A stretch of 64,000 nt of DNA, taken from assembly GCA_020631905.1 (NCBI GenBank), contig JACKGQ010000001.1, positions 229,854-293,853 of the forward strand, written 5' to 3'. Numbering within the stretch: position 1 is the stretch's first letter; every line of letters begins with the position of its first letter. This stretch comes from Candidatus Nomurabacteria bacterium (GTDB lineage: Bacteria; Patescibacteriota; Saccharimonadia; Saccharimonadales; VXPC01). The position numbers and the translations under genes are program-made. Positions 1 to 58,848 of the stretch are shown here, one piece after another. The notes beneath the pieces are model-generated. The model saw only the letters and a list, made by a program, of their open reading frames with translations, was not told the origin of the DNA and made no database searches.

Positions 1-6
1 TTAGGT

Positions 7-1359
7 ATGAAGAAGGCGGTCAAACAACTAGCCGAGAAGGCGCTACGTGGTGGGCTTTATAACAAAGTGGTTTTGCCGAAACACTATGCGAACGCCGTCG
101 CCCAAAACATCAAGCACGGGTTTCCGGCCCGCCGGCTCAAGGTAATTGGTGTAACCGGTACCAATGGTAAAACCAGCACCTGTTATTTAATCCATAGCAT
201 GCTACTGGCAGCGGGCTACAAAGCTGGCCTAATGACCACGGTGGCTTACGGAGTGGGTAAGAATATTCAGCCGCAAATTCACCACATGACTAGCCAGCCG
301 ATTGGTCTGCTGCTGGAGCGGATAGAAAAGATGAAAGCCGAGGGCATGGACATCTTAGTATTAGAAGTCACCAGCCACGCCTTGGCTCAGTTCCGCACCA
401 TGGGTGTGCCGTTCGATATTGCGGTAATGACCAACGTCACCCACGAGCATCTCGATTACCATGGTACTTTTGGCGCCTATCTGGGGGCTAAACTCAAGCT
501 GTTTAAATTGGCCAATCGGAATAAGCACGGGCACCGGATTGGAATAGTTAACGCCGACGACGAAAACGCCGCTGTTTTTGCCGATGCGATTGAAAATGTC
601 CTGGCTTATACGCTAGATCCTAAAGCAACAGGTGCTGTCGCGGCGCCGCGCAAGCTCAAGCTAACCCCGCGCGGTAGTACCTACGAAACCGAGATCAAGG
701 GAGTCAAACTTAAGCTCAAGTGCAATTTACCAGGCAGTTTTAATGTGGCCAACAGTTTGGCCGCGGCGAGTGTGGGCGTGGCCTTGGGCCTCGAGGCCAA
801 GCAGATCGAGGCAGGCATCGCCAATCTCGACAACGTCGAAGGCCGAATGACTAGGGTCGACGAAGGCCAAAGTTTTGACGTAATTGTCGATTTTGCCCAC
901 ACACCAGATAGTTTCGAGAAGTTATTCAAAGATTTGCGACCAGTGGTCAAGGGCAGACTAATTGCTTTGTTTGGTAGCGCTGGCCGGCGCGACGAATCCA
1001 AGCGAGCCATTCAAGGCCGACTAGCCGGCAAATATGCCGATTTGGTCGTGGTGACCGAAGAGGACGACCGCGATATCGACGGTACCGAGATTATGAATCA
1101 GATTGCTCACGGGGCCGAGGAGTCGGGCAAGGTTCGTGATCAAGATCTATTTTTGGTACATAACCGCACCCAGGCGATCGAGCTTGCCCTCATGCAGGCC
1201 AAAAAGGGCGATACAGTCATTTTGCTAGGCAAGGGCCACGAGAAGACCATCGAGCGAGCTGTCGGTAGTGGCGGTACTAAAGACCCCGATAACCCATGGG
1301 AAGAGCACCCATGGGACGAGATCGGCACCACCCGCAAACTTCTTAAGACTATAAAATAG
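7..1359 (+). CDS. murE: Mur ligase family protein, MurE-like (UDP-MurNAc-L-Ala-D-Glu:diamino-acid ligase)
   Basis: 450-aa ORF. ATP-binding GVTGTNGKTST, DFAHTPDSFEKLF and GSAGRRDESKR...VVVTEEDDRD motifs match MurE-type Mur ligases. N-terminal domain is short. Confidence 0.8.
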   Translation: MKKAVKQLAEKALRGGLYNKVVLPKHYANAVAQNIKHGFPARRLKVIGVTGTNGKTSTCYLIHSMLLAAGYKAGLMTTVAYGVGKNIQPQIHHMTSQPIGLLLERIEKMKAEGMDILVLEVTSHALAQFRTMGVPFDIAVMTNVTHEHLDYHGTFGAYLGAKLKLFKLANRNKHGHRIGIVNADDENAAVFADAIENVLAYTLDPKATGAVAAPRKLKLTPRGSTYETEIKGVKLKLKCNLPGSFNVANSLAAASVGVALGLEAKQIEAGIANLDNVEGRMTRVDEGQSFDVIVDFAHTPDSFEKLFKDLRPVVKGRLIALFGSAGRRDESKRAIQGRLAGKYADLVVVTEEDDRDIDGTEIMNQIAHGAEESGKVRDQDLFLVHNRTQAIELALMQAKKGDTVILLGKGHEKTIERAVGSGGTKDPDNPWEEHPWDEIGTTRKLLKTIK

Positions 1360-1361
1360 TA

Positions 1362-1390
1362 TTGTAAAATAAGCATAAGTAGTGTATAAT
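1362..1390 (+). promoter_or_regulatory. sigma70-type promoter TTGTAA-N17-TATAAT upstream of G+C-rich ORF A
   Basis: TTGTAA at 1362-1367, exact 17-nt spacer, TATAAT at 1385-1390, in AT-rich DNA directly after the murE stop. Confidence 0.55.
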
Positions 1391-1473
1391 AGTGTTATTG
1401 ATCATGAGAGTGGTCATGAATTTTTGACAATGTGTGAAAAAAAAGCCGCGGTTTTCCGGAGGTGTGTGTTTAA

Positions 1474-2280
1474 GTGGTTTTAACACAGACCCCCGGAAAG
1501 CCAACAGGCGGCTTACTTCTACCCGGGAAATTGATTGGAACTACTACAGCCATGACCATGACCATGACCGACTCGACCGTCAGCACCGACAACCTGCTCC
1601 AGCAGGTTGGTGCCATCACCAGCCACAAGTTCTACGAAGTGGTGATTGGCGATGCCAGGGTCATCCTGGACATCGCAACCATCCACGGGATCGGCAGCAG
1701 GCAGGACGCCAACAACGCGAATTCCATCTGCTGGGCCATCCGCGTGGCCGAAGGCAAGATCAACGCCCTCGAGGGCTTCTACCGCAAGGTGGAGGCCCAG
1801 CTGGCCGCGGTGCGCGAGCACCCACAGAGCGAGCACCTCTACGGGCGGGTCCGCGCCGACATCGACGCCGGCATGCCGGCGATCGGTCAAGAGCTTCAGC
1901 ACCAGCTGCAGTTCGCGCAGGAGAGGCTCTTGCCGGGCCTCGAGAAGCGCCAGGTCAGCCTGGACAAGGCCCTGCAGATCCTGGCGCGAGTGCGCCAGGA
2001 AGAGGCTTACGCCGACTTCGTGGACCAGCGCGGCCCGGCACCGGCCGAGTGCTTCGAGAACCTCGATGTTCTCTGGGCGCATCTCCACGCCTACAGGGAG
2101 TGGAACAGCGTTCTGCCCGACAACCCCGCCTTGCGGCACATGGGGCTCGACCCCAGTGTGACCCACCAGGGTCACCGGCCGCACAGCTCCGCCAGCCGGC
2201 GGGGTGCCGGTCCGCGTGACGACGTCCGCCCGAAGGCCCGCAACCCCAAGGGGAAGCGGGGCAAGGGGAACAAGCAGTAG
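1474..2280 (+). CDS. hypothetical protein, strongly G+C-rich ORF (island A)
   Basis: GTG start 11 nt after GGAGG (1459-1463); alternative ATGACC x3 start at 1551. This frame gives balanced amino-acid composition and G/C-dominated third codon positions. C-terminal tail is basic (KARNPKGKRGKGNKQ). No family recognised. Confidence 0.6.
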   Translation: MVLTQTPGKPTGGLLLPGKLIGTTTAMTMTMTDSTVSTDNLLQQVGAITSHKFYEVVIGDARVILDIATIHGIGSRQDANNANSICWAIRVAEGKINALEGFYRKVEAQLAAVREHPQSEHLYGRVRADIDAGMPAIGQELQHQLQFAQERLLPGLEKRQVSLDKALQILARVRQEEAYADFVDQRGPAPAECFENLDVLWAHLHAYREWNSVLPDNPALRHMGLDPSVTHQGHRPHSSASRRGAGPRDDVRPKARNPKGKRGKGNKQ

Positions 2281-2309
2281 CCGCCAGGCCAGGGCTTAAG
2301 CCAAGGGTG

Positions 2310-2364
2310 GGAGAGGTGCGACAAGTAGGCATTTGTCTACTTGCTAAGAGCGCAATACCTCTCC
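2310..2364. terminator. nested hairpin between convergent genes
   Basis: Outer stem GGAGAGGT (2310-2317) / ACCTCTCC (2357-2364). Inner stem CAAGTAG (2322-2328) / CTACTTG (2337-2343). Lies between the ORF A stop and the stop of the minus-strand gene at 2436. Confidence 0.4.
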
Positions 2365-2435
2365 TGCCCGGGGCAATCAACACACATTGTCACTTCACCA
2401 AAGGTTTTACTAGAAATTTAAAACTTTTGACGAAG

Positions 2436-3293
2436 TTAAAGAGTCAGACTAACACAGCGGATAAAACCACCGCCCTTAACTAGCTCGGTTACGTTCGGAC
2501 TAAGCACGTTGTAACCTCTATCACGTAACTCACTTGCCAGATTATGAGCGTGATTGCTCATAATTACGGTTTTTCCTGTACTAACTAGGTTGCACGCGAA
2601 ACCAGTTTTAGCTTCGTCGAAGCTAACCTCGATTTTATCAATATCTGTTAGTGCACGGATTTTGGCTTGGCTTTCGGGCAGCAAGGCATCCGGGCAATAC
2701 GCGATGGTGTGGTCGTCGATGACCGCAAGCGCAAGATCGAGATCGTAAAAGAAGCTATCTGGCCAGCCGGTGACCGGATTGATGACCGGTTGGTTGTCGG
2801 CACCTAGCTCTGGAATAGCTTGCACACCGATAACAGTTTTACCAAATTCGCGTCCGAGCATGTCGTGCACCTCGGGGCTGGTGCGGTACTGACTACCAAC
2901 AAAAATGTAGTTACCGCAGGGTAGGGCATCGCCCTGGCCACTAAAGTGGAGATCATCTGGCAATTTAACTGTCTCGAAACCAAGCTTTTGCAGCGTTTCG
3001 AGCGCATAGGGCTCTTCTGAGGCGCGTTGCTCTGGCAAATTACTCATGACTGCCTTATCGCCAATTACCAGCGCCCAGTTGGCCGTATAAACCCCGTCTT
3101 GGCTAGTAGGTGGTGCGGGTACTTGAATAACCTCTATACCAGCTTGCTCGAACAAACTTTTGATTTCGGCATGTTCGGCTTGGGCTCTGGCTAGATCGAC
3201 AGGCTTGGAGGCATCCATATGCGAGTTGATCGCGAATCCGTCGTTAAAGTAGTTGGCATCGGACATCAAGACGCGTTGGTTAATCAGACTCAT
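2436..3293 (-). CDS. guanidino-group-modifying enzyme superfamily protein (amidinotransferase/DDAH-like)
   Basis: 285 aa. C-terminal GGGFIRCVSLTL resembles the catalytic-Cys motif of the amidinotransferase/DDAH/arginine-deiminase fold. The size fits DDAH-like proteins rather than ArcA. Confidence 0.65.
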   Translation of the reverse strand: MSLINQRVLMSDANYFNDGFAINSHMDASKPVDLARAQAEHAEIKSLFEQAGIEVIQVPAPPTSQDGVYTANWALVIGDKAVMSNLPEQRASEEPYALETLQKLGFETVKLPDDLHFSGQGDALPCGNYIFVGSQYRTSPEVHDMLGREFGKTVIGVQAIPELGADNQPVINPVTGWPDSFFYDLDLALAVIDDHTIAYCPDALLPESQAKIRALTDIDKIEVSFDEAKTGFACNLVSTGKTVIMSNHAHNLASELRDRGYNVLSPNVTELVKGGGFIRCVSLTL

Positions 3294-3644
3294 AGAAAAG
3301 TAGTATATAGGCCGAAGGCCTTAGGGGCTAGTTTTAAGGAAAGCAAAGCATTAAATCTTTACTAATATTTTCAAGAAAGCAAAGCTTTCCATCTCACTCT
3401 TCTATTTTTGAAGAGACCAAAAACAGAAGCAAAAAAAGTCTTCCCAGCCACCCAAACATCCAGACTATCAAGCTTACAGCTCTTAAATCTGGTAACTTGC
3501 GGAACTTGCTGGCAAAGCCAGCTGCATACAGTCCTCGTTACCATACTTAAGAACTACAAGCTTGCTAATCTCGAGTTTGGGTGATGCTGGATATACAAGA
3601 CCGACAGACATCTAATATCCGAGTTCTAAGATCTATCTCATATC

Positions 3645-3680
3645 AATAAACGAGAAAACCCCGAGCCCCTGAGAGGGCTC
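3645..3680 (-). terminator. rho-independent terminator of G+C-rich ORF B1
   Basis: On the minus strand, stem GAGCCC-TCTCAG-GGGCTC is followed by GGGGTTTTCTCGTTT, directly after the stop at 3693. Confidence 0.55.
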
Positions 3681-3692
3681 TAGGGCTCTCGA

Positions 3693-4127
3693 TCAGAAGC
3701 TCGGGGTAGTTGCCCCAAGTCGACGTCGCTCGAAGCGTCGCCGTTTTCCATGTTGCGAGCCATGCATTTCGCAGGTGTGCTGCGGGTTGGCTTCTGTCAG
3801 CCAGTAGCAGAGCAGAAGCTGCAGGAACTCGCACGACCGTCGTGTCAGCAACTGCTCGGGGCAGTTACGATCCAGGCTGGTCACGTAGTAACCAAAGGAA
3901 TCTTGGTTAACCAGTAGCGAGTGATGAACTTCACCACTCAGATCGGCCAAAACCCGAAGGTCTGGTAGCTGGCAGTTGGAGTTCAGCCGGATGCGAAGGT
4001 AACCACCTGGCGGTGTATACTTGCCGGCGAGACTCACCGTCCGGTTGTCGAAGTGAATGGTAGGAGGTAGGTCGGTAGCAGACATGTCGAGCATTTGGAG
4101 CGACAGTCTGTTGAGGGTCGGGCTCAC
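3693..4127 (-). CDS. hypothetical protein, G+C-rich ORF (island B1)
   Basis: GTG start preceded by AAAGGA. 144 aa with a Cys-containing, Arg-rich C-terminus. Has its own promoter and terminator. No family recognised. Confidence 0.55.
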   Translation of the reverse strand: MSPTLNRLSLQMLDMSATDLPPTIHFDNRTVSLAGKYTPPGGYLRIRLNSNCQLPDLRVLADLSGEVHHSLLVNQDSFGYYVTSLDRNCPEQLLTRRSCEFLQLLLCYWLTEANPQHTCEMHGSQHGKRRRFERRRLGATTPSF

Positions 4128-4161
4128 TTGAGATCCTTTGTTGGCGTGTGGGACGAACGAC

Positions 4162-4190
4162 TATTATGCCAAATTTATTGATAATGTCAA
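4162..4190 (-). promoter_or_regulatory. sigma70-type promoter for ORF B1 (TTGACA-N16/17-CATAAT/ATAATA)
   Basis: Minus strand reads TTGACATTATCAATAAATTTGGCATAATA, in a short AT-rich gap between two G+C-rich ORFs. Confidence 0.55.
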
Positions 4191-4195
4191 CCCAT

Positions 4196-4227
4196 AAAAG
4201 CGGAAACCCCAGGCTACTTGCCTGGGG
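4196..4227 (-). terminator. rho-independent terminator after ORF B2 and its tRNA-like 3' element
   Basis: Minus strand: CCCCAGG-CAAGTAG-CCTGGGG followed by TTTCCGCTTTT. Confidence 0.6.
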
Positions 4228-4271
4228 CGTTGTAGTGCGGAGCGACGGCTCGACGCACAATTCAAAAGGAG

Positions 4272-4360
4272 AAGGTTCGAAGTGGGCGAACCCGGGTTTG
4301 AACCCGGACCGAGGAAACCTCGGTGTATTGGCGGTTAATCCGCCCACTACTCGAAACCTT
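4272..4360 (-). other. tRNA-like structured element (acceptor-like stem plus T-arm-like hairpin plus extra hairpin); not a canonical tRNA
   Basis: Minus strand starts 3 nt after the ORF B2 stop. Acceptor-like pair GTGGGCG/CGCCCAC is extended to about 17 bp. Hairpins are CCGAGG-TTT-CCTCGG and TCCGGG-TTCAAA-CCCGGG (T-loop-like). No D-arm or 7-nt anticodon loop can be drawn. Confidence 0.4.
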
Positions 4361-4363
4361 GAG

Positions 4364-4807
4364 CTACTCCGACATCGCGGGCGGCAGCCCCGCCTCGTGG
4401 GTGGCGTACCACTCACGGTGGGGATCGATCACCCCAGGCTCTTCAGAGTTGTTGCCATCTTCGATCAGGCCGAGACCCTTCGGCCAAGTCCTGATCAACC
4501 CCACGATGGTTGCGATGACCTCCTGCTCCTTCCGGGTTGAGGCGTCCGTGACGGGCGCATCGTGGGCTCCGAGCAGGATTTTCACCGTTGCGGTGTCCGG
4601 GTAGTAGACCCAGTCGTCAGCGCTGATGCCGGCGACTTGACCCATGTCGGCAATCAGCTGGTCGAGGCCGGCAGATGTCAACGGCTGGAAGAACTCGATC
4701 TCGCCGAAGTGACTGTTGGGATGGACTGCAATTCGCAACCAACCACAGCCGTCACCAAGCGTGGTGAGCTCCCTATCCGAACCCTCAGTGAAGGTTGAAG
4801 GTTTCAA
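4364..4807 (-). CDS. hypothetical protein, G+C-rich ORF (island B2)
   Basis: TTG start 5 nt after AGGAGA. 147 aa with balanced composition. Has its own promoter. No family recognised. Confidence 0.6.
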   Translation of the reverse strand: MKPSTFTEGSDRELTTLGDGCGWLRIAVHPNSHFGEIEFFQPLTSAGLDQLIADMGQVAGISADDWVYYPDTATVKILLGAHDAPVTDASTRKEQEVIATIVGLIRTWPKGLGLIEDGNNSEEPGVIDPHREWYATHEAGLPPAMSE

Positions 4808-4851
4808 GGTGTCTCCTTGTAAAGGGCCCGGACTTGTTTCCGAGCTTGGGC

Positions 4852-4880
4852 ATCTTACACAATCTATATCACATTGTCAA
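4852..4880 (-). promoter_or_regulatory. sigma70-type promoter for ORF B2 (TTGACA-N17-TAAGAT)
   Basis: Minus strand: TTGACA (4875-4880), 17-nt spacer, TAAGAT (4852-4857). Confidence 0.6.
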
Positions 4881-4892
4881 ATTTATGAATAT

Positions 4893-5498
4893 ATGTTAAA
4901 AATATATATGTTTATGACTGAAGGAGTCTTAGCCGAACAAAACTTGACCTTACGGGTCGGCTTATTGCTCAAAAAAATTACTAAATACGGCCTAGGCGCA
5001 TTCCAAGATGGCCCCGAATTCTTTAAGCGCTCGATTGAAGATGGCCATGCCGTTGGTAAGTTTGCGCTAAAGGCAAGGCCGGGGGTCAATCTAGAAGCGG
5101 TTAAGCCGGAGTTTCGCATGGTTGTATCAGTCCCAGTCCGCGAAACTGGCGAAATTATTCTGGACGAAGAGACGCTTAATGTTGCATGGTGTAGCTTGCG
5201 CTCATTCCTAACCCCAGAAATAGTCGGTGGCGAACAACGCGACCCTAAAGAATGGGTGGTTAATTCCGGCACCGGCATAACCGATGAACAAACAGGCACC
5301 ACCGACAATGAAATTAAAGATTTATTAGACACAGTCACCGATTCTTCGTTAGTTGTGGCCGGCCAAACCTTGATAGAGGCTCCAGACCTCGAGCAGGAGG
5401 TTATAGCAGCCCTTAATCGTCAGCTAAGCTTAGCTGATCGACTTAATCAGTTGCTGGGCAACTATCTAGAACTGACTAGATTCGACGATATTTATTAG
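4893..5498 (+). CDS. hypothetical protein
   Basis: The long ORF 4716-5498 overlaps ORF B2 upstream, so the likely start is one of ATG 4893, 4908 or 4914 in the AT-rich divergent promoter region. No family recognised. Confidence 0.5.
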   Translation: MLKIYMFMTEGVLAEQNLTLRVGLLLKKITKYGLGAFQDGPEFFKRSIEDGHAVGKFALKARPGVNLEAVKPEFRMVVSVPVRETGEIILDEETLNVAWCSLRSFLTPEIVGGEQRDPKEWVVNSGTGITDEQTGTTDNEIKDLLDTVTDSSLVVAGQTLIEAPDLEQEVIAALNRQLSLADRLNQLLGNYLELTRFDDIY

Positions 5499-5506
5499 TC
5501 TATTGG

Positions 5507-5773
5507 TTAAGAGAGCGAGCAGACAGGTCGACCGTCGTTATCTATAGCTGTATCTGCGAAAGAAGCCATGCTTGGCTCAAACTGAAAAGTATAAGACTGG
5601 CCTTCTTCGTCAACACAGGTAACTCTAACTAGACCGTCATTATCGTGGTGGAATGTTGGTTCACCAATCACCCTACCGTTTAAAGAAACTGTACGCTGCA
5701 GAACTAACGCGACCACCGCATCTATACCTGCAACACGTGGGTCGCAAAGTTCATGCATTGACAAACTACTCAT
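5507..5773 (-). CDS. hypothetical protein (88 aa)
   Basis: ATG-initiated ORF filling the gap between flanking genes, with ordinary composition. No family recognised. Confidence 0.45.
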   Translation of the reverse strand: MSSLSMHELCDPRVAGIDAVVALVLQRTVSLNGRVIGEPTFHHDNDGLVRVTCVDEEGQSYTFQFEPSMASFADTAIDNDGRPVCSLS

Positions 5774-5826
5774 AATCTGTTAAATTTTAACACATAAGTA
5801 ATTAAAACGCAAACGATAAACATCTT

Positions 5827-6834
5827 ATGACTTCACCACTAGATAAAGTTAACGAACAAGACCCCGTGTTAAGTAGGCGGGCATTTGACCCGCTCGAAAT
5901 AGAGTTTGGCGATAAAAACTTAAGACGCCAAGCTTTAAATCTCGACATTGAAGCGCTGAATACATCGTTAGATCCTAATGAAAGAATCGAACTGTTAGTT
6001 GATGCATGTTATTTGATGTTTCGAGATGAGGAACTGGTTGAACGTGCAACTGGGCTAGCCCGTAGTACCATGGATATGGTTGTCGAGAGGTTAGATGTTG
6101 CACTGACTCCCACAGAGCGGCTTAGAATGCGTATGCGTTTACTCGATCTAGGTGAGTTGCACTCACTTGGACTAATCCGTCAAACCGAGCTCGATCACTA
6201 CGATGGTGATAGCCTAGAGGAATTTGATGCGAAGCACACTAAAGCTATGGTCGCTCGTGAGTCTCGATTAGTGCTTTCGGTTCGAGCGGGCATTGATATG
6301 CTGGAAGAAGCCCATAAAGCCCACGAAGCCTCGGAAGCCGAACCGGTGCTACAGAGAGATTTGCGCGGAATGATGTTTGAAGCCCTTGTTATGACATACG
6401 CCAGGTATCTCTTATATGAAGATGAGAACACTCTAGATGGTGTGTTCGGCAGTAGCTATTTTAGCGATAAAAGCTCAGCACACGACGCAACAACTAAGAA
6501 CCACGACATGGTCGTTCGAGATATAGACGGTAATCCAATATCGATCATACAGACAAAAAACTACCATATGGGACATAATCACTACGATCGGCGTATCGAC
6601 CCTGTCGAGGCGCACAATTTTGGACTGTTTATGCGCGAACCCGGTAAATATATACATGCTCTAAGGCTACTTATTGACAATAACCCGATGACATCAGAAA
6701 AGATGCTGGTCGAAGCGAAGGCCCGACTAGAAGAGATTACTGGGCTCAGGGCTCTTTTAGAGGCCCGACGCCAATCGCGCAGGGTGGCCTCGGGTATTGG
6801 TATGGCAGTTGAAGCTGCTGACGTAAGATTGTGA
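5827..6834 (+). CDS. hypothetical protein (335 aa)
   Basis: Long ORF with protein-like composition. No motif recognised. Confidence 0.6.
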   Translation: MTSPLDKVNEQDPVLSRRAFDPLEIEFGDKNLRRQALNLDIEALNTSLDPNERIELLVDACYLMFRDEELVERATGLARSTMDMVVERLDVALTPTERLRMRMRLLDLGELHSLGLIRQTELDHYDGDSLEEFDAKHTKAMVARESRLVLSVRAGIDMLEEAHKAHEASEAEPVLQRDLRGMMFEALVMTYARYLLYEDENTLDGVFGSSYFSDKSSAHDATTKNHDMVVRDIDGNPISIIQTKNYHMGHNHYDRRIDPVEAHNFGLFMREPGKYIHALRLLIDNNPMTSEKMLVEAKARLEEITGLRALLEARRQSRRVASGIGMAVEAADVRL

Positions 6835-6863
6835 TTGACACATTATTAGCACTCGGTTAGTAT
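6835..6863 (+). promoter_or_regulatory. groESL promoter TTGACA-N17-TAGTAT
   Basis: TTGACA at 6835-6840, 17-nt spacer, TAGTAT at 6858-6863. Overlaps the CIRCE operator. Confidence 0.65.
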
Positions 6864-6872
6864 GAGTGCCAG
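6846..6872 (+). promoter_or_regulatory. CIRCE inverted repeat (HrcA operator)
   Basis: TTAGCACTC-GGTTAGTAT-GAGTGCCAG versus consensus TTAGCACTC-N9-GAGTGCTAA, located upstream of groES. Confidence 0.85.
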
Positions 6873-6926
6873 AAACTGCGACGCAGTTTGTTATCAATAG
6901 CAATTCGTAAGAGGGAGTAAGACAGA

Positions 6927-7196
6927 ATGTCGAAATTAAGCATTGTACCGCTAGCCGACTTGGTGCTAGCCAAAAACGACGAAGCTCAGGCCAAGACTGC
7001 CAGTGGCTTGTTCTTGCCAGAAAATGCTCAAGAAAAACCAAAGACTGCCACTGTCGAGGCAGTTGGTCCAGAAGTTAAGGGTATTAAAGCTGGTGATCAG
7101 ATAATCTTTAAAAGCTATAGCACGACCGACATCAAACATGGTGGAGTTGATTACATTTTAGTAAAAGAAGAAGATGTTCTAGCAAAGGTAGGCTAG
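6927..7196 (+). CDS. groES: co-chaperonin GroES
   Basis: 89 aa. Contains the mobile-loop pattern TASGLFLPE... Sits immediately upstream of groEL. SD GAGGGAG lies 9 nt from the ATG. Confidence 0.95.
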   Translation: MSKLSIVPLADLVLAKNDEAQAKTASGLFLPENAQEKPKTATVEAVGPEVKGIKAGDQIIFKSYSTTDIKHGGVDYILVKEEDVLAKVG

Positions 7197-7246
7197 GACA
7201 CACTCAGAATAAGAACTAATAGTAAGAAAGGAGAAGTCTTAGGGCT

Positions 7247-7281
7247 CTAAGATCTAAGCTCTAAGATCCAAGATCTAGAAT
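7247..7281 (+). repeat. heptanucleotide tandem array (CTAAGAT-like, 5 units) in the groEL 5' UTR
   Basis: Units CTAAGAT CTAAGCT CTAAGAT CCAAGAT CTAGAAT end at the groEL ATG. Preceded by GGCTCTA. Confidence 0.85.
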
Positions 7282-8899
7282 GAGTAAACGAATATACTAC
7301 GATGCAGATGCCAGAGAGCGCTTACTGGGCGGTGCGAGGGCCCTGTACGAAGCTGTAAAAACAACTATGGGCCCCAAAGGTCGCAATGTGATTATCGCTA
7401 AAAGCTACGGCGCACCTACGATTACTCACGACGGTGTAACTGTTGCCAAAGGCATTGATTTACCAGATAACGATCCAGCTACTTTAGGCTATAAGGTGGG
7501 TGCCGAGCTGATCAAGCAAGCTGCCAACAAAATGAACGATGTTGCCGGCGACGGCACAACCACTGTAACTGTTCTGACCTACCATATTTTAAATGAAGCC
7601 AACAAACTAATTGCGGCTGGCCACAACCCAATGCAACTCCGCAAAGGCTTGGAAAAGGCTGCCGAAGAGGTAATTGCTGCTCTCGAAGGTATGCGCGAAG
7701 ATATCGGCAACGATAAAAAGCGGGTGGCTCAGGTAGCTACTATCTCGGCCGGCGACTCGACGATTGGCGACATGATTGCCGAAGTTATGGAAAAGGTCGG
7801 TCGCGAAGGTGTGGTAACTGTCGAAGAAGGCCAAGGACTGGCCATGGAAAGCGAAGTTGTCGAAGGCTTTACCTTTGACCGTGGTTTTGTTAGCCCCTAT
7901 ATGGTTACCGACAGCGGTCGCATGGAAGCAGTCTACGACAAGCCAAGTATCGTAATTACCGACAAGAAAATCTCGAGCATTCAAGAATTTTTACCAGTTC
8001 TTGAAAAGCTTGCCCAAGCTGGCAAAAAAGACGTAGTACTGATTGCCGAAGATGTTGAAGGCGAGGCTCTGGGAGCGCTGATTTTGAACAAGCTTAAAGG
8101 TGTGCTCAACACCGTTGCGGTTAAGGCTCCATCTTTTGGTGACCGCCGCAAAGATATTTTGAACGACATTGCCATTTTGACTGGTGCAACTGTGATTTCC
8201 GAAGACCAAGGCTATACCTTTGAGTCGGCCGACCTAAGCATGATCGGTAGTGCTCGCCGAGTAATTGTAACTGCCGACGAAACTACAATCATTGAGGGTG
8301 CCGGCAATCCGGTTGAATTAGCCTCGAGGATTGATCAGATCAAAACTCAGAGCACCAACGCAAGCAGCGAGTTCGACAAAGAAAACCTAGACAAACGAGC
8401 GGCTGCCCTAAATGGCAAAGTTGCGGTGATCAAAGTTGGTGGTGCCACCGAAACCGAGATCGAAGAGAAGAAATACCGAGTCGATGACGCTGTGGCTGCC
8501 GTCAAAGCCGCCCTCGACGAAGGCATCGTGCCTGGTGGTGGCGTAACACCTGTAAACTTAGCTGTTGCGATCGACGACACCGACTCTGGTGCCGCTATCT
8601 TGAAAAATGCTCTCGAACAACCATTCCGAATCTTACTAACCAACAGTGGTTTGAATGCCGACGAGTGGCTGCCGCAAGTTAAGGCCGGTAAGCCGGGTAT
8701 GGGACTAGACGTCAATAATCCAAGTAAATTGGTAGACATGAAGGCCAGTGGAATCGTCGACCCTGCTCGGGTAACACGCGAAGCCATCCAGAACGCAGTC
8801 TCGATTGCCGGCACCAGCATGACCATGGGTGCGCTTGTAGTCGACGAGCCAGAAGACAAGTCGGCTGGTGGTGCTCCTGATATGTCTGGCATGATGTAA
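7280..8899 (+). CDS. groEL: chaperonin GroEL
   Basis: 539 aa. Contains TMGPKGRNV, AGDGTTTVTVL and a C-terminal GGAPDMSGMM tail. Confidence 0.98.
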   Translation: MSKRIYYDADARERLLGGARALYEAVKTTMGPKGRNVIIAKSYGAPTITHDGVTVAKGIDLPDNDPATLGYKVGAELIKQAANKMNDVAGDGTTTVTVLTYHILNEANKLIAAGHNPMQLRKGLEKAAEEVIAALEGMREDIGNDKKRVAQVATISAGDSTIGDMIAEVMEKVGREGVVTVEEGQGLAMESEVVEGFTFDRGFVSPYMVTDSGRMEAVYDKPSIVITDKKISSIQEFLPVLEKLAQAGKKDVVLIAEDVEGEALGALILNKLKGVLNTVAVKAPSFGDRRKDILNDIAILTGATVISEDQGYTFESADLSMIGSARRVIVTADETTIIEGAGNPVELASRIDQIKTQSTNASSEFDKENLDKRAAALNGKVAVIKVGGATETEIEEKKYRVDDAVAAVKAALDEGIVPGGGVTPVNLAVAIDDTDSGAAILKNALEQPFRILLTNSGLNADEWLPQVKAGKPGMGLDVNNPSKLVDMKASGIVDPARVTREAIQNAVSIAGTSMTMGALVVDEPEDKSAGGAPDMSGMM

Positions 8900-8982
8900 G
8901 TATTCAGGAGGGAATGACTTTCCCTCCTGACGCGCAGGCAAATCGAAGATTTGTCTGGCTGTCCTCCCTTCGCAAAGGATCT

Positions 8983-9019
8983 AATAAACCCGGAGTAAAT
9001 CCGGGTTTATTAGTGTTTT
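8983..9019 (+). terminator. hairpin terminator downstream of groEL
   Basis: AATAAACCCGG-AGTAAAT-CCGGGTTTATT followed by AGTGTTTT. It is one of at least five hairpins between 8900 and 9130. Confidence 0.55.
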
Positions 9020-9231
9020 AAATGGTTATCTAGATGTTACTTATTCTTAAACTGGGAAGGTTGAGCGTTCTCGGGCTGCTCATATCCCAAAGCGGAATAA
9101 AGAGATCGGAGTGGATCCGATCTCTTCGCGGTTTTTGAGGAGGTGTGCTAGCCCTTCAACCAAAGACTTATAGCCTCTGATCAAATCCAGATTTATTTAA
9201 TTTTATGAAAATTGGGTGTTGTAAGTAAAAC

Positions 9232-9260
9232 TTGCAATACTTTAATACTTGTGGTATACT
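9232..9260 (+). promoter_or_regulatory. promoter TTGCAA-N17-TATACT (extended -10 TGG)
   Basis: TTGCAA at 9232-9237, 17-nt spacer ending in TGG, TATACT at 9255-9260. Upstream of the LPXTG protein gene. Confidence 0.6.
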
Positions 9261-9295
9261 ACAGTTACTAATTGGAAGGTTAGGAGTTGGATTAA

Positions 9296-9793
9296 ATGCC
9301 ATACAAGAAAAAAGATACCAAGATTTCTAATGCGCAAGCATATTTGAAGTCGACCGACACAGTCAGTCGACCGACTGCCATTATTATGAGCTTGTTAACG
9401 TTTTTGGCTGTATTTGCGGTTGTCTTGAGCCTATTCTTGGGTGGAAAGTGGTTGTACGACCGTCAGAACAATAATTCGAGCTCCTCGACCAGTACAACTC
9501 AGAGCACTTCTAGTAACACAGAAACAGACAATTCAAGCAAAGTTACCTCGAACTCAGCTGGCAACGACGGGCTTGGGATTACAGTTATCGACGGCGACGG
9601 CGAAAAGATTGCTAGTCGCGTGGGTGAGCAGTTTAACAAGTCGACCACTACCTCGACCGACAAGCCAGCTTCGACACCAGTCGTTAAAACCGATACTTTG
9701 CCTCGGACTGGTCCAGCCAACAATCTTCTGATTGCAGTCGGAGTTGTCGTAATTGTATCAGCTAGCCACAGCTTGTATGCTCGCCGCAGATAA
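9296..9793 (+). CDS. LPXTG-anchored Ser/Thr-rich surface protein
   Basis: N-terminal TM or signal anchor, S/T-rich spacer, then C-terminal LPRTG plus a hydrophobic stretch plus RRR, which is a sortase sorting signal. Confidence 0.8.
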   Translation: MPYKKKDTKISNAQAYLKSTDTVSRPTAIIMSLLTFLAVFAVVLSLFLGGKWLYDRQNNNSSSSTSTTQSTSSNTETDNSSKVTSNSAGNDGLGITVIDGDGEKIASRVGEQFNKSTTTSTDKPASTPVVKTDTLPRTGPANNLLIAVGVVVIVSASHSLYARRR

Positions 9794-9822
9794 CTCATAA
9801 AAATACGGAATTATCAGAATTT

Positions 9823-9848
9823 AGAGAGCTCGCCATGAGCTCTCTTTT
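9823..9848 (+). terminator. rho-independent terminator
   Basis: AGAGAGCTC-GCCAT-GAGCTCTCT followed by TTT. Confidence 0.7.
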
Positions 9849-9865
9849 GGTTTATGCTTATATAT

Positions 9866-10891
9866 ATGTTAGACGATCTTAAATATATTCACACCAAAGA
9901 TTCTGGCGATGCCTTGGGTATGGCCGAAAAGCAATGGCAGCAGCTCGAGCACGAGTTTCCTGTACCCGACCTAAATAAACCCGATAAAGTGGTCTTTGCG
10001 GGCATGGGCGGCTCAGCACTAGAGGCGCTGGTTTCGATGACCTGGCCTGGGTATAACGTGCCATTCGAGCTGGTTCGCGATTACGACTTACCTAAGTATG
10101 TCGACGATAAAACCTTGGTGATTGTCTCGAGCTATTCGGGTAATACCGAAGAGGCAGTTTCGGTGCTCGAACAGGCAATTGCCAGCCCGGCCCAGGTGGT
10201 CGTGCTAGCTGGTGGTGGCGAATTGGCTGATTTGACCCGCGATAAACATCAGATATATGTTGATTTGCCTAAAGCCAGCCAACCACGTTATGCAGTTTTT
10301 TATGCCCTTAAAGCACTAGTTACAATGCTCGAGCGAGCGGGTTTGGTAGCCGAGGCAGAAGCCGAGAAGGCTTTGCATAACAGTGCTGAATTTTTGCGCG
10401 AAGAAGTTAAAAATTGGCTACCCGATGTGCCAACTAGCAACAACCCGGCCAAGCGCTTGGCGCGTGAGCTGGTCGGTAAGTCACCAGTTGTTTATGCTGG
10501 CAAAGTCCTTGCGTCAGCTGCCTATAAATGGAAAATAAGTTTTAACGAAAATGCCAAGAACGTCGCTTGGTGGGGGCAATACCCGGAGTTTAATCATAAT
10601 GAGTTTATGGGCTGGAGCTCGCACCCACATGATAAGCCTTATGAGGTGATCGATTTGCGCAGTAGTTTTGACCACCCACGGGTTCGAAAACGTTTTGAAC
10701 TCAGCGACAAGCTACTAAGTGGCAAGCGACCTAAAGCCCATGTAGTAGAGGCCAAAGGCGCGACTATCTTAGAGCAAATTTTGTGGACGATAAGCTACGG
10801 AGATTTTGTTTCGATCTATCTTGCACTACTAAATGGGGTTAACCCAACCCCGGTCGACCTGATAGAAAAGTTCAAACACGAGCTTGGCTAA
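9866..10891 (+). CDS. bifunctional phosphoglucose/phosphomannose isomerase family protein (SIS domain)
   Basis: Contains GMGGSALEA and VIVSSYSGNTEE SIS motifs, and a PGI/PMI-type C-terminal half. An alternative ATG lies at 9854. Confidence 0.75.
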   Translation: MLDDLKYIHTKDSGDALGMAEKQWQQLEHEFPVPDLNKPDKVVFAGMGGSALEALVSMTWPGYNVPFELVRDYDLPKYVDDKTLVIVSSYSGNTEEAVSVLEQAIASPAQVVVLAGGGELADLTRDKHQIYVDLPKASQPRYAVFYALKALVTMLERAGLVAEAEAEKALHNSAEFLREEVKNWLPDVPTSNNPAKRLARELVGKSPVVYAGKVLASAAYKWKISFNENAKNVAWWGQYPEFNHNEFMGWSSHPHDKPYEVIDLRSSFDHPRVRKRFELSDKLLSGKRPKAHVVEAKGATILEQILWTISYGDFVSIYLALLNGVNPTPVDLIEKFKHELG

Positions 10892-14049: not shown

Positions 14050-14139
14050 AGGAGAGGTGTCCGAGTGGTTGAAGGAGCACGCTTGGAAAGCGTGTATGCG
14101 GGCAACCGTATCACGGGTTCGAATCCCGTCCTCTCCGCC
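14050..14139 (+). tRNA. tRNA-Ser (anticodon GGA), CCA encoded
   Basis: Acceptor GGAGAGG/CCTCTCC, anticodon arm CACGC-TTGGAAA-GCGTG, long variable arm, T-arm GGGTTCGAATCCC, 3' GCCA. Confidence 0.9.
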
Positions 14140-39298: not shown

Positions 39299-39327
39299 TT
39301 GAAGAAATCGTCTAAGTATTGTAGAAT
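39299..39327 (+). promoter_or_regulatory. promoter TTGAAG-N17-TAGAAT upstream of G+C-rich ORF C
   Basis: TTGAAG at 39299-39304, 17-nt spacer, TAGAAT at 39322-39327. Confidence 0.55.
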
Positions 39328-39373
39328 ATGCATCTGGACAATCCGGTCCAATTACCCAAAAAGGGGTACGTAC

Positions 39374-39901
39374 ATGAACGAAGATTTCCATTCTGATATC
39401 GGTGGGGTTCGTGACCAGCTCAACAGCTTGTTACGGGAAATCAGGGAGCTTCAGGCAAGAGCTGCCCAGTTCCAGTCTGATCTCGATCGCCGTCGTTCCG
39501 TGCAGCTCGACCCTGGCATCACCTCTGTTGACGCACAACTCGCGGAGTTCAGGTTGAAGATCATGTTCCTCCGCACAGAGTTGCTCGATGTCGCTGAGGG
39601 GGGCATCACCGAGGCCTATGCCAGCAGAGTCGACGAGAGCATGCCCGGTGTCGTGGAGTTCTACAACGAGTTCTTCGAAGCTCTCCAGACCTACGTCTTC
39701 GAGCCCGACTGGTTCCCGTTGAGGTTGGTCTTGGTGCCGAAGCCATCGAGCTGGCACACGCCCTCGGTGTCTCACACCCAACTGGTAGACAGTTTCAAGC
39801 AGGAACTCGCTGAGTTGTTCGCCAAGCACGGTGTGACCAGTGGACGCGTCGACGTCCGTAGAGGTCAGATCGTGGCCTTCACCCTGGATCCCCAGCGGTA
39901 G
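39374..39901 (+). CDS. hypothetical protein, G+C-rich ORF (island C)
   Basis: ATG lies 8 nt after AAAAAGGGG. 175 aa with a coiled-coil-like N-terminus and G/C-rich third codon positions. The antisense ORF 39431-39973 is a GC artefact. Confidence 0.6.
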   Translation: MNEDFHSDIGGVRDQLNSLLREIRELQARAAQFQSDLDRRRSVQLDPGITSVDAQLAEFRLKIMFLRTELLDVAEGGITEAYASRVDESMPGVVEFYNEFFEALQTYVFEPDWFPLRLVLVPKPSSWHTPSVSHTQLVDSFKQELAELFAKHGVTSGRVDVRRGQIVAFTLDPQR

Positions 39902-39980
39902 ATGGCTAGAAGCGGATCGGATTACCACTCCGGGGTGTGGAGCGTTAAGTTCCACCCCGGGGTGCCGATTCATGAAAACG

Positions 39981-40004
39981 ACACTCCGACAGGAGTGTTT
40001 TTTG
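39981..40004 (+). terminator. rho-independent terminator
   Basis: ACACTCC-GACA-GGAGTGT followed by TTTTTT. Confidence 0.75.
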
Positions 40005-45852: not shown

Positions 45853-46410
45853 TCAACCTGAGGTGAGGTGTTTAACCCCTTGAGTTGAACATTTACAATC
45901 AGGTACTAGAAAAAAAATCGCGGTGGCGAGGCAGACGACGGTGTTGGATTACCGTATGGCGCCTTAGCCCCAGTTGGCATGTTGCAAGCAGCAATTCTGC
46001 AGCGTCATCTGACGTGCACCACATTTGTTGGCCGGCAAAGATTAGCCGGACTTGCCAAACTTCTCCGAGGTGCGCGTCGCGTGCTTTGGGGTGCGTGCGG
46101 GCTCACCCGCAACCGAATGGGCGATGCCGGATCCGCTGGCCGCCGAATAGACCCTAGTGAAAGGGGTAAGCTGTGGTCCCACCGGGCCTCTAGGCCGTAC
46201 CGGTCCAAGATGCTACCACCCGAAAGGGGGAGCTATATCAGACTGGTACGGCTATCTTCAGTCAAAATCTGGTGCTCCGCTACAGGCTTGCGTCCACTAC
46301 GTGGCCACCTGGGGCGGAGCACCGAGACCCAATGAAAACCGCCGCCCCGACCTCGTGCAATCGGCCGCAAGGCAGCATGGGGTCGGGGCACAGGTTATCT
46401 AGTACCTGAA
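45853..46410 (+). ncRNA. candidate large structured ncRNA, class unassigned
   Basis: Consensus promoter upstream. An 11-bp closing inverted repeat (45899-45909 / 46399-46409) encloses a core of about 61% G+C. The core has perfect 9-13 bp helices and GNRA loops on the + strand. Only R/W/C-rich overlapping ORFs are present. Confidence 0.55.
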
Positions 46411-46457
46411 TTTCCACTAAATCTTAAAAGAGTTAAGGTTTGATGGAGATTAAATAC

Positions 46458-57862: not shown

Positions 57863-58319
57863 GGGTAGTCTTTTTACGAGCATACCCGAAGGCTCGACTG
57901 GGATAGCATCTCTTTTCTTCGAGATGTTGACCATTTTTAGGCGGTTGCAAGCGGTTAAACGCGCTTCGGCCTAAAAAGGTGAGGTCTCTCAGTGTAACCT
58001 CAGCGAACCTGTGGAACGTGTCACTAGGGCTATTGCCACCGGACTTGCGTCCAGTATCTACGTTCCAAGGTGTGCGCCGCCTATCCGGTAAGGTCCTGGC
58101 GTCGGCCTCAGCGTTGCATGCAGTAGCCCATTCGGGCTAAAGGCTTCGCATCTTGGTCGGGGCCATGCTTTCGAAGCGCACAAAATTCTTGCCGAGTTAC
58201 CCCTCGGCAGGGTGGAGGCGTTACAGCTACTCGTAGCCGAAAGCCTTCTGCAGCCAGCGTAGCTGGGCTGCAATCATCTCTCCCCCCTTTCGATAGACGT
58301 AGGAATTTGGATGATGACA
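57836..58319 (-). ncRNA. candidate large structured ncRNA, class unassigned
   Basis: Minus-strand promoter at 58326-58354 and terminator at 57836-57862. The ~480 nt between have no plausible ORF but many perfect helices: 9-bp 57934-57942/57969-57977, 7-bp 58013-58019/58060-58066, and GGAC-GCAA-GTCC at 58041-58052. Confidence 0.55.
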
Positions 58320-58354: not shown

Positions 58355-58379
58355 TATATTTTTAAAGATTGCAAAACAT

Positions 58380-58408
58380 TTGCATGCGACCACTGTTAGT
58401 GATACAAT
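58380..58408 (+). promoter_or_regulatory. rpsF operon promoter TTGCAT-N17-TACAAT
   Basis: TTGCAT at 58380-58385 and TACAAT at 58403-58408. Divergent from the ncRNA promoter. Confidence 0.6.
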
Positions 58409-58473
58409 TTCACACGCAAACTTCAGCTTGTGGCTCAAAGTGCACAGGCATTAACCAAAGGAAGGAGTCTTTA

Positions 58474-58848
58474 GTGGATACATACGAAGTTGCGGTTTTG
58501 TACCATCCCGATCTCGAGCTTGACCTCGACAAAGGTGCAACCAAAGTTAAACAAATAATTAGCGACGCCGGCGGCAAATTAGTTGCCGAAGATGTCTGGG
58601 GGAAGCGCAAGCTAGCTTACCGAATCGCCGGTAACGAGCACGCGGTTTATGCCTTTTACGAGGTGCAGATGCCTGGTACAGCGATTGCCAAGATAGAGGC
58701 TAGTCTGAATATCACCGACGAAGTGATCCGTTTTTTGATATCAAAGAACGACACCGAAGCAGTCGAAAAGGCCCGAATTTTTAAAGAAAAACGCAAGCGT
58801 GAAGAGTCTGACGACGAACAAAAAGCAGAAGATAACAACGACAACTAA
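58474..58848 (+). CDS. rpsF: 30S ribosomal protein S6 with acidic tail
   Basis: GTG start after AAGGAAGGAG. YEVAVLYHPDLE...WGKRKLAYRI. The track ORF extends further upstream (TTG 58369). Confidence 0.9.
   Translation: MDTYEVAVLYHPDLELDLDKGATKVKQIISDAGGKLVAEDVWGKRKLAYRIAGNEHAVYAFYEVQMPGTAIAKIEASLNITDEVIRFLISKNDTEAVEKARIFKEKRKREESDDEQKAEDNNDN

Follow-up and report, generated by a model that had tools for sequence, protein, structure and literature searches.

Regulatory small RNAs (sRNAs) can be derived from the 3' untranslated regions (3'UTRs) of bacterial mRNAs, as in the case of CpxQ and SroC of enterobacteria, and sRNAs with C-rich seeds, such as RsaE/RoxS of Firmicutes, block ribosome-binding sites. 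Saccharibacteria are obligate episymbionts with tiny genomes. To our knowledge, almost no regulatory RNAs have been described for this phylum, and we know of very little on its gene regulation or on the roles of its orphan genes. The locus treated here lies in a stretch of 64,000 nucleotides (nt) of contig JACKGQ010000001.1 (positions 229,854 to 293,853; assembly GCA_020631905.1, Candidatus Nomurabacteria bacterium, order Saccharimonadales), which as a whole is called the window. The subject is an island of two small minus-strand open reading frames (ORFs), 4364-4807 (B-up) and 3693-4127 (B-down), with the RNA elements around them, between murE and groES. A structured RNA motif found next to such ORFs is similar to the sRNAs named above, as judged from their general descriptions and not from sequence comparison, in that it lies directly 3' of a coding region, shares the terminator of the mRNA and is better conserved than the ORF. 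As in RsaE/RoxS, it presents an unpaired C/U-rich tract. Unlike all four sRNAs, it has no relationship to an Rfam family, its host is an episymbiont with a reduced genome, and the candidate sRNA is known from sequence alone. Unlike in the C-rich-seed sRNAs, the C-rich tract in the window is short, and one stem of the motif (H2, described below) is collapsed.

On balance, it is probable that B-up and B-down are two small, long-standing and fast-evolving genes, predicted to be transcribed separately, in a hypervariable slot between murE or a DDAH-like gene and groES, and that they are not recent foreign DNA; the unit of B-up would be the local version of a recurrent module of ORF and RNA. The more interesting result is this recurrent ORF-plus-RNA module, together with the persistent gene-specific G+C content in a hypervariable slot.

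Two units and their counterpart in another lineage

The elements of the island are listed below in the order of transcription, followed by the neighboring gene. L089 denotes a contig of 1,051 nt from the Logan metagenome assemblies, which carries the homologous locus; GC3 is the G+C content at third codon positions, and protein lengths are in amino acids (aa).

B-up promoter: 4852-4880, minus strand; TTGACA (4880-4875)-N17-TAAGAT (4857-4852), 10/12 in the promoter scan
B-up 5'UTR: 4808-4851, minus strand; hairpin at 4826-4845 near the predicted 5' end, AAGGAGA at 4818-4812
B-up: 4364-4807, minus strand; ORF for an acidic protein of 147 aa, GC3 0.76, with one true homologue (P0005)
Y-shaped structure: 4268-4370, minus strand; starts at the B-up stop codon, fold z score -5.6, tRNA-like core at 4288-4352
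H3 hairpin: 4235-4258, minus strand; GCG-UC-GAGC-(CGUC)-GCUC-CGC, the best-conserved non-coding element of the island
B-up unit terminator: 4196-4228, minus strand; 9-base-pair (bp) hairpin CCCCAGGC...GCCUGGGG, then UUUCCGCUUUU; folds well
B-down promoter: 4163-4190, minus strand; TTGACA-N16-CATAAT with TG, 11/12 in the scan
B-down 5'UTR: 4128-4162, minus strand; block GTCCCAnnCGnCAAC-AAAGGATCnnAA ahead of GTG, found only in the window and L089
B-down: 3693-4127, minus strand; ORF for a basic protein of 144 aa, GC3 0.64, database matches to itself only
B-down unit terminator: 3645-3680, minus strand; GAGCCCTCTCAGGGGCTC, then GGGGTTTTCT; called by the scan at 3680..3663 plus T-run
Divergent neighbor gene: 4893-5498, plus strand; 201 aa, GC3 0.45 (normal), kept next to the B-up homologue in L089

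An earlier reading of the sequence alone had pointed out that both ORFs are G+C-rich with biased third positions, and this is confirmed. B-up starts with TTG and has a G+C content of 0.61 (0.61, 0.46, and 0.76 at the three codon positions); B-down starts with GTG and has 0.57 (0.61, 0.46, and 0.64). The window as a whole has 0.468. Against the long ORFs of the window, whose median GC3 is 0.46, the z scores are 3.4 and 2.1; the anomaly is strong for B-up and moderate for B-down. The predicted isoelectric points (pI) are 4.5 for B-up and 8.7 for B-down. No hydrophobic N-terminal segment was seen in B-up, as judged by eye and not with a signal-peptide or membrane predictor. The Cys- and Arg-rich C-terminus of the sequence-only reading exists, but in the downstream ORF 3693-4127, its B1: B-down has a Cys/His-rich segment (C89, C99, C107, H117, C119, H122, H126) and an Arg-rich tail, KRRRFERRR. 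The coding region of B-up is not unusually structured (z -1.6), and thus gives no sign of simple selection for mRNA folding.

Each ORF was found by the scan to have its own promoter, as had been proposed. Ten promoter-like sites occur in positions 1-9000, where 7.4 +/- 2.7 are expected, so that the number is not above chance; the two promoters are credible because both recur at the same positions in L089, as TTGACA-N17-TAGTAT at the place equivalent to that of B-up and TTGACA-N16-CAAAAT at that of B-down. The Shine-Dalgarno sequence claimed for B-up is also present, as AAGGAGA 4 nt upstream of the TTG start. The B-up 5'UTR folds at -12.9 kcal/mol (z -1.8, alone not significant), and its hairpin with the loop GAAAACAGGT is retained in L089 with compensatory changes. 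Each unit likewise ends in a terminator of its own. That of B-down was found by the scan; that of B-up was missed by it because its T-run is interrupted, and it is supported by folding and by the equivalent terminator of L089 (CCUCAGAC...GUCUGAGG, then UUUUCGCCUUU), in which the stem changes are compensatory. The spacer between the ORFs (4128-4363, 236 nt) had been called AT-rich. This applies to the part with the B-down promoter and 5'UTR (4128-4195, G+C content 0.40), but not to the spacer overall (0.52), since its other part (4196-4363) has 0.57 and is highly structured.

L089 was reached through the B-up protein. An exhaustive phmmer search of 1.84 billion representative proteins found a single true homologue of B-up, P0005 (126 aa, E-value (E) 2e-8, 30-33% identity, with GDGCGWL and DPHxE..TH invariant), which is encoded on L089. 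Element by element, the layout of L089 is that of the window, with the same order of neighbor, promoters, UTR blocks, hairpins, terminator, and start of a second ORF. A truncated ORF of L089 shows ~35% identity over 69 aa to the 201-aa neighbor of B-up, which matched nothing but itself in the protein database. Directly 3' of the stop codon of the B-up homologue lies a long hairpin, followed by the hairpin TGCGTCGAG-N6-CTCCGCA; thus L089 has H1, H3, and the terminator, and no H2 (see below for these elements). The 5'UTR block before the GTG of the second ORF is nearly identical to that of the window (GTCCCAnnCGnCAAC-AAAGGATCnnAAGTGA), and this ORF has the same GTG start and 8/24 residues identical to B-down before the contig ends after 31 codons. 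The homologue of B-up has a GC3 of 0.88 in flanks with a G+C content of 0.48-0.52. The claim that the pair forms two expression units and not an operon is therefore supported, because the promoters, the intervening terminator, and the 5'UTRs are kept in L089 despite only 33% identity of the B-up protein. This design has been kept where synonymous sites are saturated, which supports that the promoters and terminators are functional.

Neither protein could be assigned to a known family, and the orphan status assigned to them earlier was upheld by protein-family, cluster, and exhaustive searches. Pfam, PHROG, PADLOC (0 hits), and NCBIfam gave no significant match for B-up or B-down, a word-indexed search of 5.8 billion clusters returned only the two proteins themselves, and the PDB sequence search gave no match. 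A search of metagenome and viral contigs with the B-up alignment found nothing. Three giant proteins (P0003, P0004, and P0006; E 3e-12 to 4e-4) were rejected as compositional noise; they are PKD-like T/A/D-rich repeat proteins that match B-up residues 49-96 9-22 times. Single-sequence AlphaFold2 gave low-confidence models, with predicted local distance difference test (pLDDT) values of 52 for B-up (topology beta-beta-alpha-beta-beta-alpha) and 47 for B-down. Foldseek comparisons of these models with the PDB were not usable, the best E being 0.045 for B-up (Prp, SMU.848, and eIF1/YciH-like small alpha/beta folds) and 0.24 for B-down.

The window comes from a Candidatus Saccharibacteria metagenome-assembled genome. 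Its positions 3353-10807 match contig JAGQMU010000017 of GCA_020428525.1 without a difference, and the sequence recurs at 99.7-100% in independent assemblies from ENA and Logan. Contigs from independent assemblies (L002/L006, L007, and L008) stop at 3662-3671, within the B-down terminator, and L007 and L008 also stop at 4484-4493, within B-up. These shared ends could reflect strain-level variants at these places or low coverage.

The murE-groES slot and its structured RNA

The surroundings of the island were compared among 80 Saccharimonadales loci, taken from a GroEL-anchored scan with one genome per species, in which the closest relative has 80% GroEL identity. Of these loci, 63 have murE upstream of groES, and the interval between the two genes ranges from 74 nt to 6.4 kb. 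In the window, the sequence-only reading had taken the 5.5-kb block between murE and groES as purely hypothetical. This is not so, since ORF 2436-3293 on the minus strand is DDAH/amidinotransferase-like (Pfam PF19420, E 9e-11), and it is conserved in 30/80 relatives. The Pfam scan covered the seven hypothetical ORFs of 1.4-6.8 kb, and murE, groES, and groEL were identified by eye and from the relatives. In the closest relative, L009, B-up and B-down are absent, and the space between the DDAH-like gene and groES holds two unrelated genes. In the same genome, only 2 nt separate murE from the DDAH-like gene by the ORF calls, which indicates that another G+C-rich ORF of the window (1474-2280, island A) is an insertion. 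tblastn found no match in the 80 loci for B-up, B-down, island A, the 201-aa ORF, or an 88-aa ORF near groES; the last was tied by jackhmmer to ORFs in L067 and L029.

Many relatives have a minus-strand ORF of ~110-210 aa in this slot with a GC3 of 0.53-0.92. In 13 of the 15 ORFs examined, GC3 is above the background of the own genome (0.35-0.70), the exceptions being L070 and L081, and most of the slot ORFs have their own near-consensus promoter, as read directly from the sequence. Two classes can be told apart by charge. One is acidic (pI 4.5-5.1) and consists of B-up, P0005, and the ORFs of L029, L067, and L044. The other is mostly basic (pI 8.7-11.7) and consists of B-down and eleven others, most of which have a Lys/Arg-rich tail. 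Homology of the small ORFs between genera was sought with BLASTP, jackhmmer, and hhalign and was not obtained beyond three sets: B-up with P0005, L067 with L029, and L027 with L028 and L030. The ratio of non-synonymous to synonymous substitution rates (dN/dS) between the counterparts of L028 and L030 (77% identity) is 0.24, and these are therefore real genes under purifying selection.

The ORFs of L027 (7579-7989), L028 (7549-7968), and L030 (1602-2015), all on the minus strand, form a subfamily of basic small proteins that share RARSR-SHPSNG and an RRR(RR) C-terminus. Each is followed by TGAGCT...TCGCTGGGG and a long hairpin directly 3' of the stop codon. At its beginning, this 3' region is like that of L089 (TGAGCTG...TCGCTGGGG); the proteins are unrelated.

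A structured RNA follows such ORFs in several genera. The motif consists of a long hairpin (H1) and a stem (H2, GGGCUUGG...CCAAGCCC) that encloses the hairpin H3 and a C/U-rich tract (CCUCCGCCCCUC...), and it ends in a terminator or U-run. This architecture was recovered by independent energy folding in each of L067, L036, L080, L029, and L045. The consensus of H2 is GGGYUUGR...YCAARCCC and the pattern of H3 is GCG-(UC/UYGC)-stem-loop-stem-CGC; the inner stem of H3 reads GAGC/GCUC, AGGC/GCCU, or GAGGC/GCCUC in the relatives read by hand, and its four innermost pairs are invariant in the model-fitted alignment. Covariance models (R1 and R2), based first on 5 and later on 7 sequences, detected 11 members, of which 7 score 72-104 bits and the other 4 score 26-33 bits. 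All 11 are on the minus strand inside the murE-groES interval. In 10/11 loci, the RNA is preceded by a same-strand ORF (111-207 aa), with 7-16 nt from the stop codon of this ORF to the start of the RNA. In the exception, L044, an ORF at the expected spacing lacks codon periodicity, and a GC3-rich ORF ends ~58 nt upstream of the RNA. Downstream of the RNA, where it was read, there is usually the DDAH-like gene, apparently with its own -10 element.

The stems covary. In the alignment, which is model-fitted and thereby somewhat favors the structure, 89% of cells pair, compared with 31-50% in slid controls, and 19/37 pairs are changed on both sides. None of 500 shuffles reached the observed values, and the result was similar with all 11 members. 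The structure belongs to the minus-strand RNA, because model scores are far lower on the plus strand and G-U pairs are present. Rfam has no family for the motif, even at E up to 10, and no description of such an ORF-RNA module in Saccharibacteria turned up in full-text searches of the literature. The unpaired C/U-rich tract (CCUCC, CCCUCCCC) is predicted to be able to pair with ribosome-binding sites of the GGAGG type.

In the window, the element at the corresponding place appears altered. It lies on the same strand, between the DDAH-like gene and groES, and begins at the stop codon of B-up, which is small and GC3-rich. H3 at 4236-4257 is identical to L067 8378-8399 at 20/22 positions, and its stems are kept in L089. 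We read the core of the Y-shaped structure as a short H1 (CCGAGG-UUU-CCUCGG) and a collapsed H2 (CCGGGUU/CAAACCCGG) in a new outer stem, followed by a U-run. With filters off, model R1 aligns 4288-4326 as H1 and collapsed H2 (6.2 bits) and 4232-4257 as H3 (model positions 77-105, 4.4 bits); both pieces have the expected strand and order, at scores that are not significant. The strands of H2 are adjacent (CCGGGUU-CAAACCCGG, 4290-4306) and H3 lies outside, so that H2 does not enclose H3 as it does in the relatives. The proteins have diverged beyond recognition, whereas H3 and the terminator have been retained, the pattern looked for in a 3'UTR-derived sRNA.

The Y shape is reminiscent of mascRNA/menRNA (RF01684) and of bacterial YrlA-type Y RNAs: 4288-4352 combines an acceptor-like stem (7-11 bp) with a short arm like that of the anticodon and with a T-arm-like hairpin whose loop is UUCAAA. 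Unlike in tRNA, the loops have 3 and 6 nt (not 7), there is no D arm, and the T stem is separated from the acceptor stem by 3 extra nt. The Rfam mascRNA-menRNA model gives 25.4 bits for 4288-4352 with a cut-off of 42.5. Unlike in the tRNA-like RNAs, the Y shape is a feature of the window that is absent from L089 and all 11 relatives, and comparison explains it by a shortened H1 and a collapsed H2. A tRNA, a tRNA remnant, or an integration site at this place was rejected, since ARAGORN and the Rfam tRNA model were negative and the geometry is wrong; ARAGORN and Rfam at the gathering score found only a tRNA-Ser, at 14051, and no tRNA within 9 kb. The RNA of the window may thus be a degenerate and rearranged version of the motif and not a tRNA relic; it is absent from the RNA databases searched.

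Exact matches to a 20-mer of H3 in metagenome contigs were rejected as a sign of wide conservation. The word is 75% G+C, and 49/50 matches are due to chance, lying in unrelated and, by eye, apparently coding DNA of contigs with a G+C content of 0.53-0.77. The only real match, L091, has the same sequence as L067.

A B-down-like gene 3' of the RNA was sought in L067; none was found, and codon periodicity was not seen. A G+C-rich stretch of ~330 nt (L067 7959-8291, minus strand) lies there between the RNA terminator and the DDAH-like gene; it does not resemble B-down, and none of its frames shows codon periodicity.

Explanations for the island

The proposed course of events combines these features. 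A same-strand module of a strong sigma-70-type promoter, a small GC3-rich ORF, a structured RNA a few nt past the stop codon, and a terminator would recur in the slot, with the DDAH-like gene next to it in the relatives. In its RNA, the hairpin H1 would be followed by H2 enclosing H3 and the C/U-rich tract, which resembles an anti-Shine-Dalgarno sequence. In the lineage of the window, this RNA would have been rearranged, H1 and the collapsed H2 giving the tRNA-like Y and H3 becoming free-standing, and a second unit, that of the basic and Arg-tailed B-down, would have been placed between the RNA and the DDAH-like gene. The 5' hairpin, the G+C-rich body, and the 3' hairpins might make a long-lived monocistronic mRNA. 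The anti-Shine-Dalgarno-like tract and the short distance from the stop codon to H1 suggest that the RNA is a 3'UTR-derived sRNA or a translation-sensing switch; if the 3' RNA is regulatory, it might be released as an sRNA that uses the C-rich tract on ribosome-binding sites. Alternatively, the 3' RNA may be a binding site for the small protein. Arg-rich tails suggest nucleic-acid binding by some of the proteins, possibly of the 3' RNA. The high GC3 may be kept by selection or a local process, and not for lack of time to ameliorate. The anatomy of the units, the presence of both in one other lineage, the recurrence of slot and module in other genera, the covariation of the RNA, and the purifying selection on one counterpart pair are established; the functional steps above are of low certainty.

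Several points weigh against this reading. The conservation of the pair, which the sequence-only reading had proposed to check, is seen in L089 together with the two-unit design, but this is one extra locus, a 1-kb contig with 31 codons of the second ORF. The positional family of small ORFs is drawn from place, size, strand, composition, and shared RNA, because homology across genera is undetectable. With default filters, the covariance models gave no match in the window up to an E of 10 or 1, and H3 identity and position are suggestive only of membership of its element in the RNA family. The structure models are of low confidence, with no fold match below E 0.045. The coding status of B-down is less certain than that of B-up, since its coding region is unusually structured (z -3.8), its codon periodicity is weaker, and all three strain differences (H25L, M121V, and H126R) are non-synonymous, with no synonymous one.

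The island had been described as foreign-looking, and recent horizontal transfer from a G+C-rich donor such as an actinobacterial host, with a composition that is not yet adjusted, would explain GC3 values of 0.76 and 0.64 against 0.46 (z 3.4 and 2.1) in a hypervariable slot from which both ORFs are absent in the closest sampled relative, L009. The island is like the orphan-gene islets of recombination hot spots, in which lineage-specific hypothetical genes of atypical composition occupy a variable slot between conserved core genes. Unlike in such islets, the anomaly is common to homologues and counterparts in many genera and is accompanied there by conserved non-coding elements, and for this reason it is not a mark of recent import. 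The 33%-identical homologue keeps a GC3 of 0.88 with conserved AT-rich promoters and UTRs in its flanks of 0.48-0.52, so that the contrast is old, and a like excess over the genome background (0.35-0.70) is seen in most counterparts from other genera. No homologue outside the group appeared among the 1.84 billion representative proteins or the 5.8 billion clusters, and the seven ORFs of 1.4-6.8 kb contain no integrase by Pfam; there is no tRNA gene, nor a flanking repeat beyond short, probably chance matches. Because the contrast is old and shared, the AT-rich flanks are conserved along with the G+C-rich body, and neither donor homologues nor marks of mobility were found, recent acquisition is quite unlikely. 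The patchy distribution of H3, nearly identical in the more distant L067 and absent in L009, would also allow lateral exchange among Saccharimonadales.

It is also unlikely that the RNA is an independent small RNA gene with incidental ORFs upstream, or, in a stronger form, that one or both ORFs of the window are spurious frames in a G+C-rich structured RNA. The RNA is indeed more conserved than any ORF, long ORFs arise by chance in G+C-rich DNA, and the folding and polymorphisms of B-down just mentioned agree with such a frame. Against this, 10 of 11 loci have an ORF of 111-207 aa on the strand of the RNA that stops 7-16 nt short of it, codon periodicity is clear, with G+C content lowest at second and highest at third positions, and Shine-Dalgarno sequences and start codons are conserved. 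B-up has a homologue at the protein level with invariant motifs and a coding region that is not unusually structured, and the dN/dS of 0.24 between L028 and L030 speaks for translated genes. A conflict pair (toxin-antitoxin, effector-immunity, or effector-chaperone), in which the acidic B-up protein neutralizes the basic B-down protein, is suggested by the adjoining small proteins of opposite charge (pI 4.5 and 8.7), by their apparent conservation as a pair in L089, by the very fast divergence typical of conflict genes, and by the variable accessory slot. In the adjacency of one acidic and one basic protein in a variable region, the pair is like type II toxin-antitoxin systems; unlike the operons of these, it has a 236-nt spacer with a conserved terminator and a separate promoter, and most module-bearing relatives have a single small ORF, either acidic or basic. 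Together with the lack of any known toxin, antitoxin, or defense domain in PADLOC, Pfam, NCBIfam, and PHROG, and of a signal peptide or secretion-system neighbor noticed by eye, this makes the explanation improbable. The layout of several G+C-rich ORFs of the window (1474-2280, 4364-4807, and 39375-39901), with a long imperfect hairpin immediately 3' of the ORF, the presence of the hairpin being conserved and its sequence variable, might further recall integron-like or other site-specific cassettes with an attC-like recombination site after each stop codon. This is hardly credible: integron cassettes are usually promoterless, whereas each ORF here has its own promoter, the core sites RYYYAAC/GTTRRRY were not seen at the hairpin ends on reading the sequence, none of the seven hypothetical ORFs scanned in 1.4-6.8 kb was a recombinase or integrase by Pfam, and G-U pairs and strand-specific model scores indicate a structure at the level of RNA, not of DNA.

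Two old genes with a local version of the module thus remain the preferred explanation, and a broader statement can be made tentatively. Saccharimonadales may carry an undescribed ORF-RNA module in which a small-protein gene that evolves very fast holds a GC3 of ~0.53-0.92, far higher than most backgrounds and irrespective of genome G+C content, and translation is coupled to the RNA, which would be either a 3'UTR regulator or the RNA partner of the protein; the pair of the window would be a derived two-gene version, and the cassettes at 1474-2280 and 39375-39901 would be of the same design class. If the module is real, it adds to the phylum a structured RNA family candidate that is absent from Rfam. 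G+C-rich "islands" could then be old and maintained features, which composition-based detection of transfer would misread, and the puzzle would be what holds GC3 high in one small gene across backgrounds of 0.35-0.70. The locus offers concrete and short targets, namely two promoters, one hairpin, and two small proteins, for metatranscriptomics and for the genetic tools that are emerging for these bacteria.

Neighboring genes and other G+C-rich blocks

Two hypothetical genes by groES, of 88 aa (5507-5773, minus strand) and 335 aa (5827-6834, plus strand), have homologues in L067 (5480-6823), and in addition in L029 or L018. In L067, this pair lies between murE and the DDAH-like gene and not next to groES, and the slot has therefore been internally rearranged. 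The 335-aa neighbor as a search anchor in genome contigs gave nothing. Just upstream of the DDAH-like gene, at 3332-3394, there is a direct repeat of 27 nt (TTTTAAGGAAAGCAAAGCATTAAATCT and TTTTCAAGAAAGCAAAGCTTTCCATCT, at a distance of 36 nt), and the NCBI contig of the genome stops at 3353, within its first copy.

Two further cassettes of the window are on the plus strand. Island A (1362-2400) has a promoter at 1362-1390, the ORF 1474-2280 (268 aa, GC3 0.85), and a long hairpin directly 3' of the stop codon. A third cassette of the same design, at 39299-40000, consists of TTGAAG-N17-TAGAAT, a 5'UTR, a G+C-rich ORF from ATG at 39375 to the stop codon at 39901 (GC3 ~0.72), a hairpin (CCGGGGUGUGGA...UCCACCCCGG) directly after the stop codon, and a terminator.

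A block of ~500 nt at 45899-46421 (plus strand), upstream of rpsO and pnp, has a G+C content of 0.60-0.65 and no codon periodicity (0.61, 0.61, and 0.58 at the three positions). The inverted repeat CAGGTACTAG...CTAGTACCTG flanks it on both sides, and the promoter-like TTGCAT-N17-TATAAT precedes it. The block had no Rfam match at E up to 1, and it is a candidate for a large structured non-coding RNA. Finally, G+C content is at or above 0.58, with a maximum of 0.61, at 57938-58304, upstream of ORF 58369-58848.

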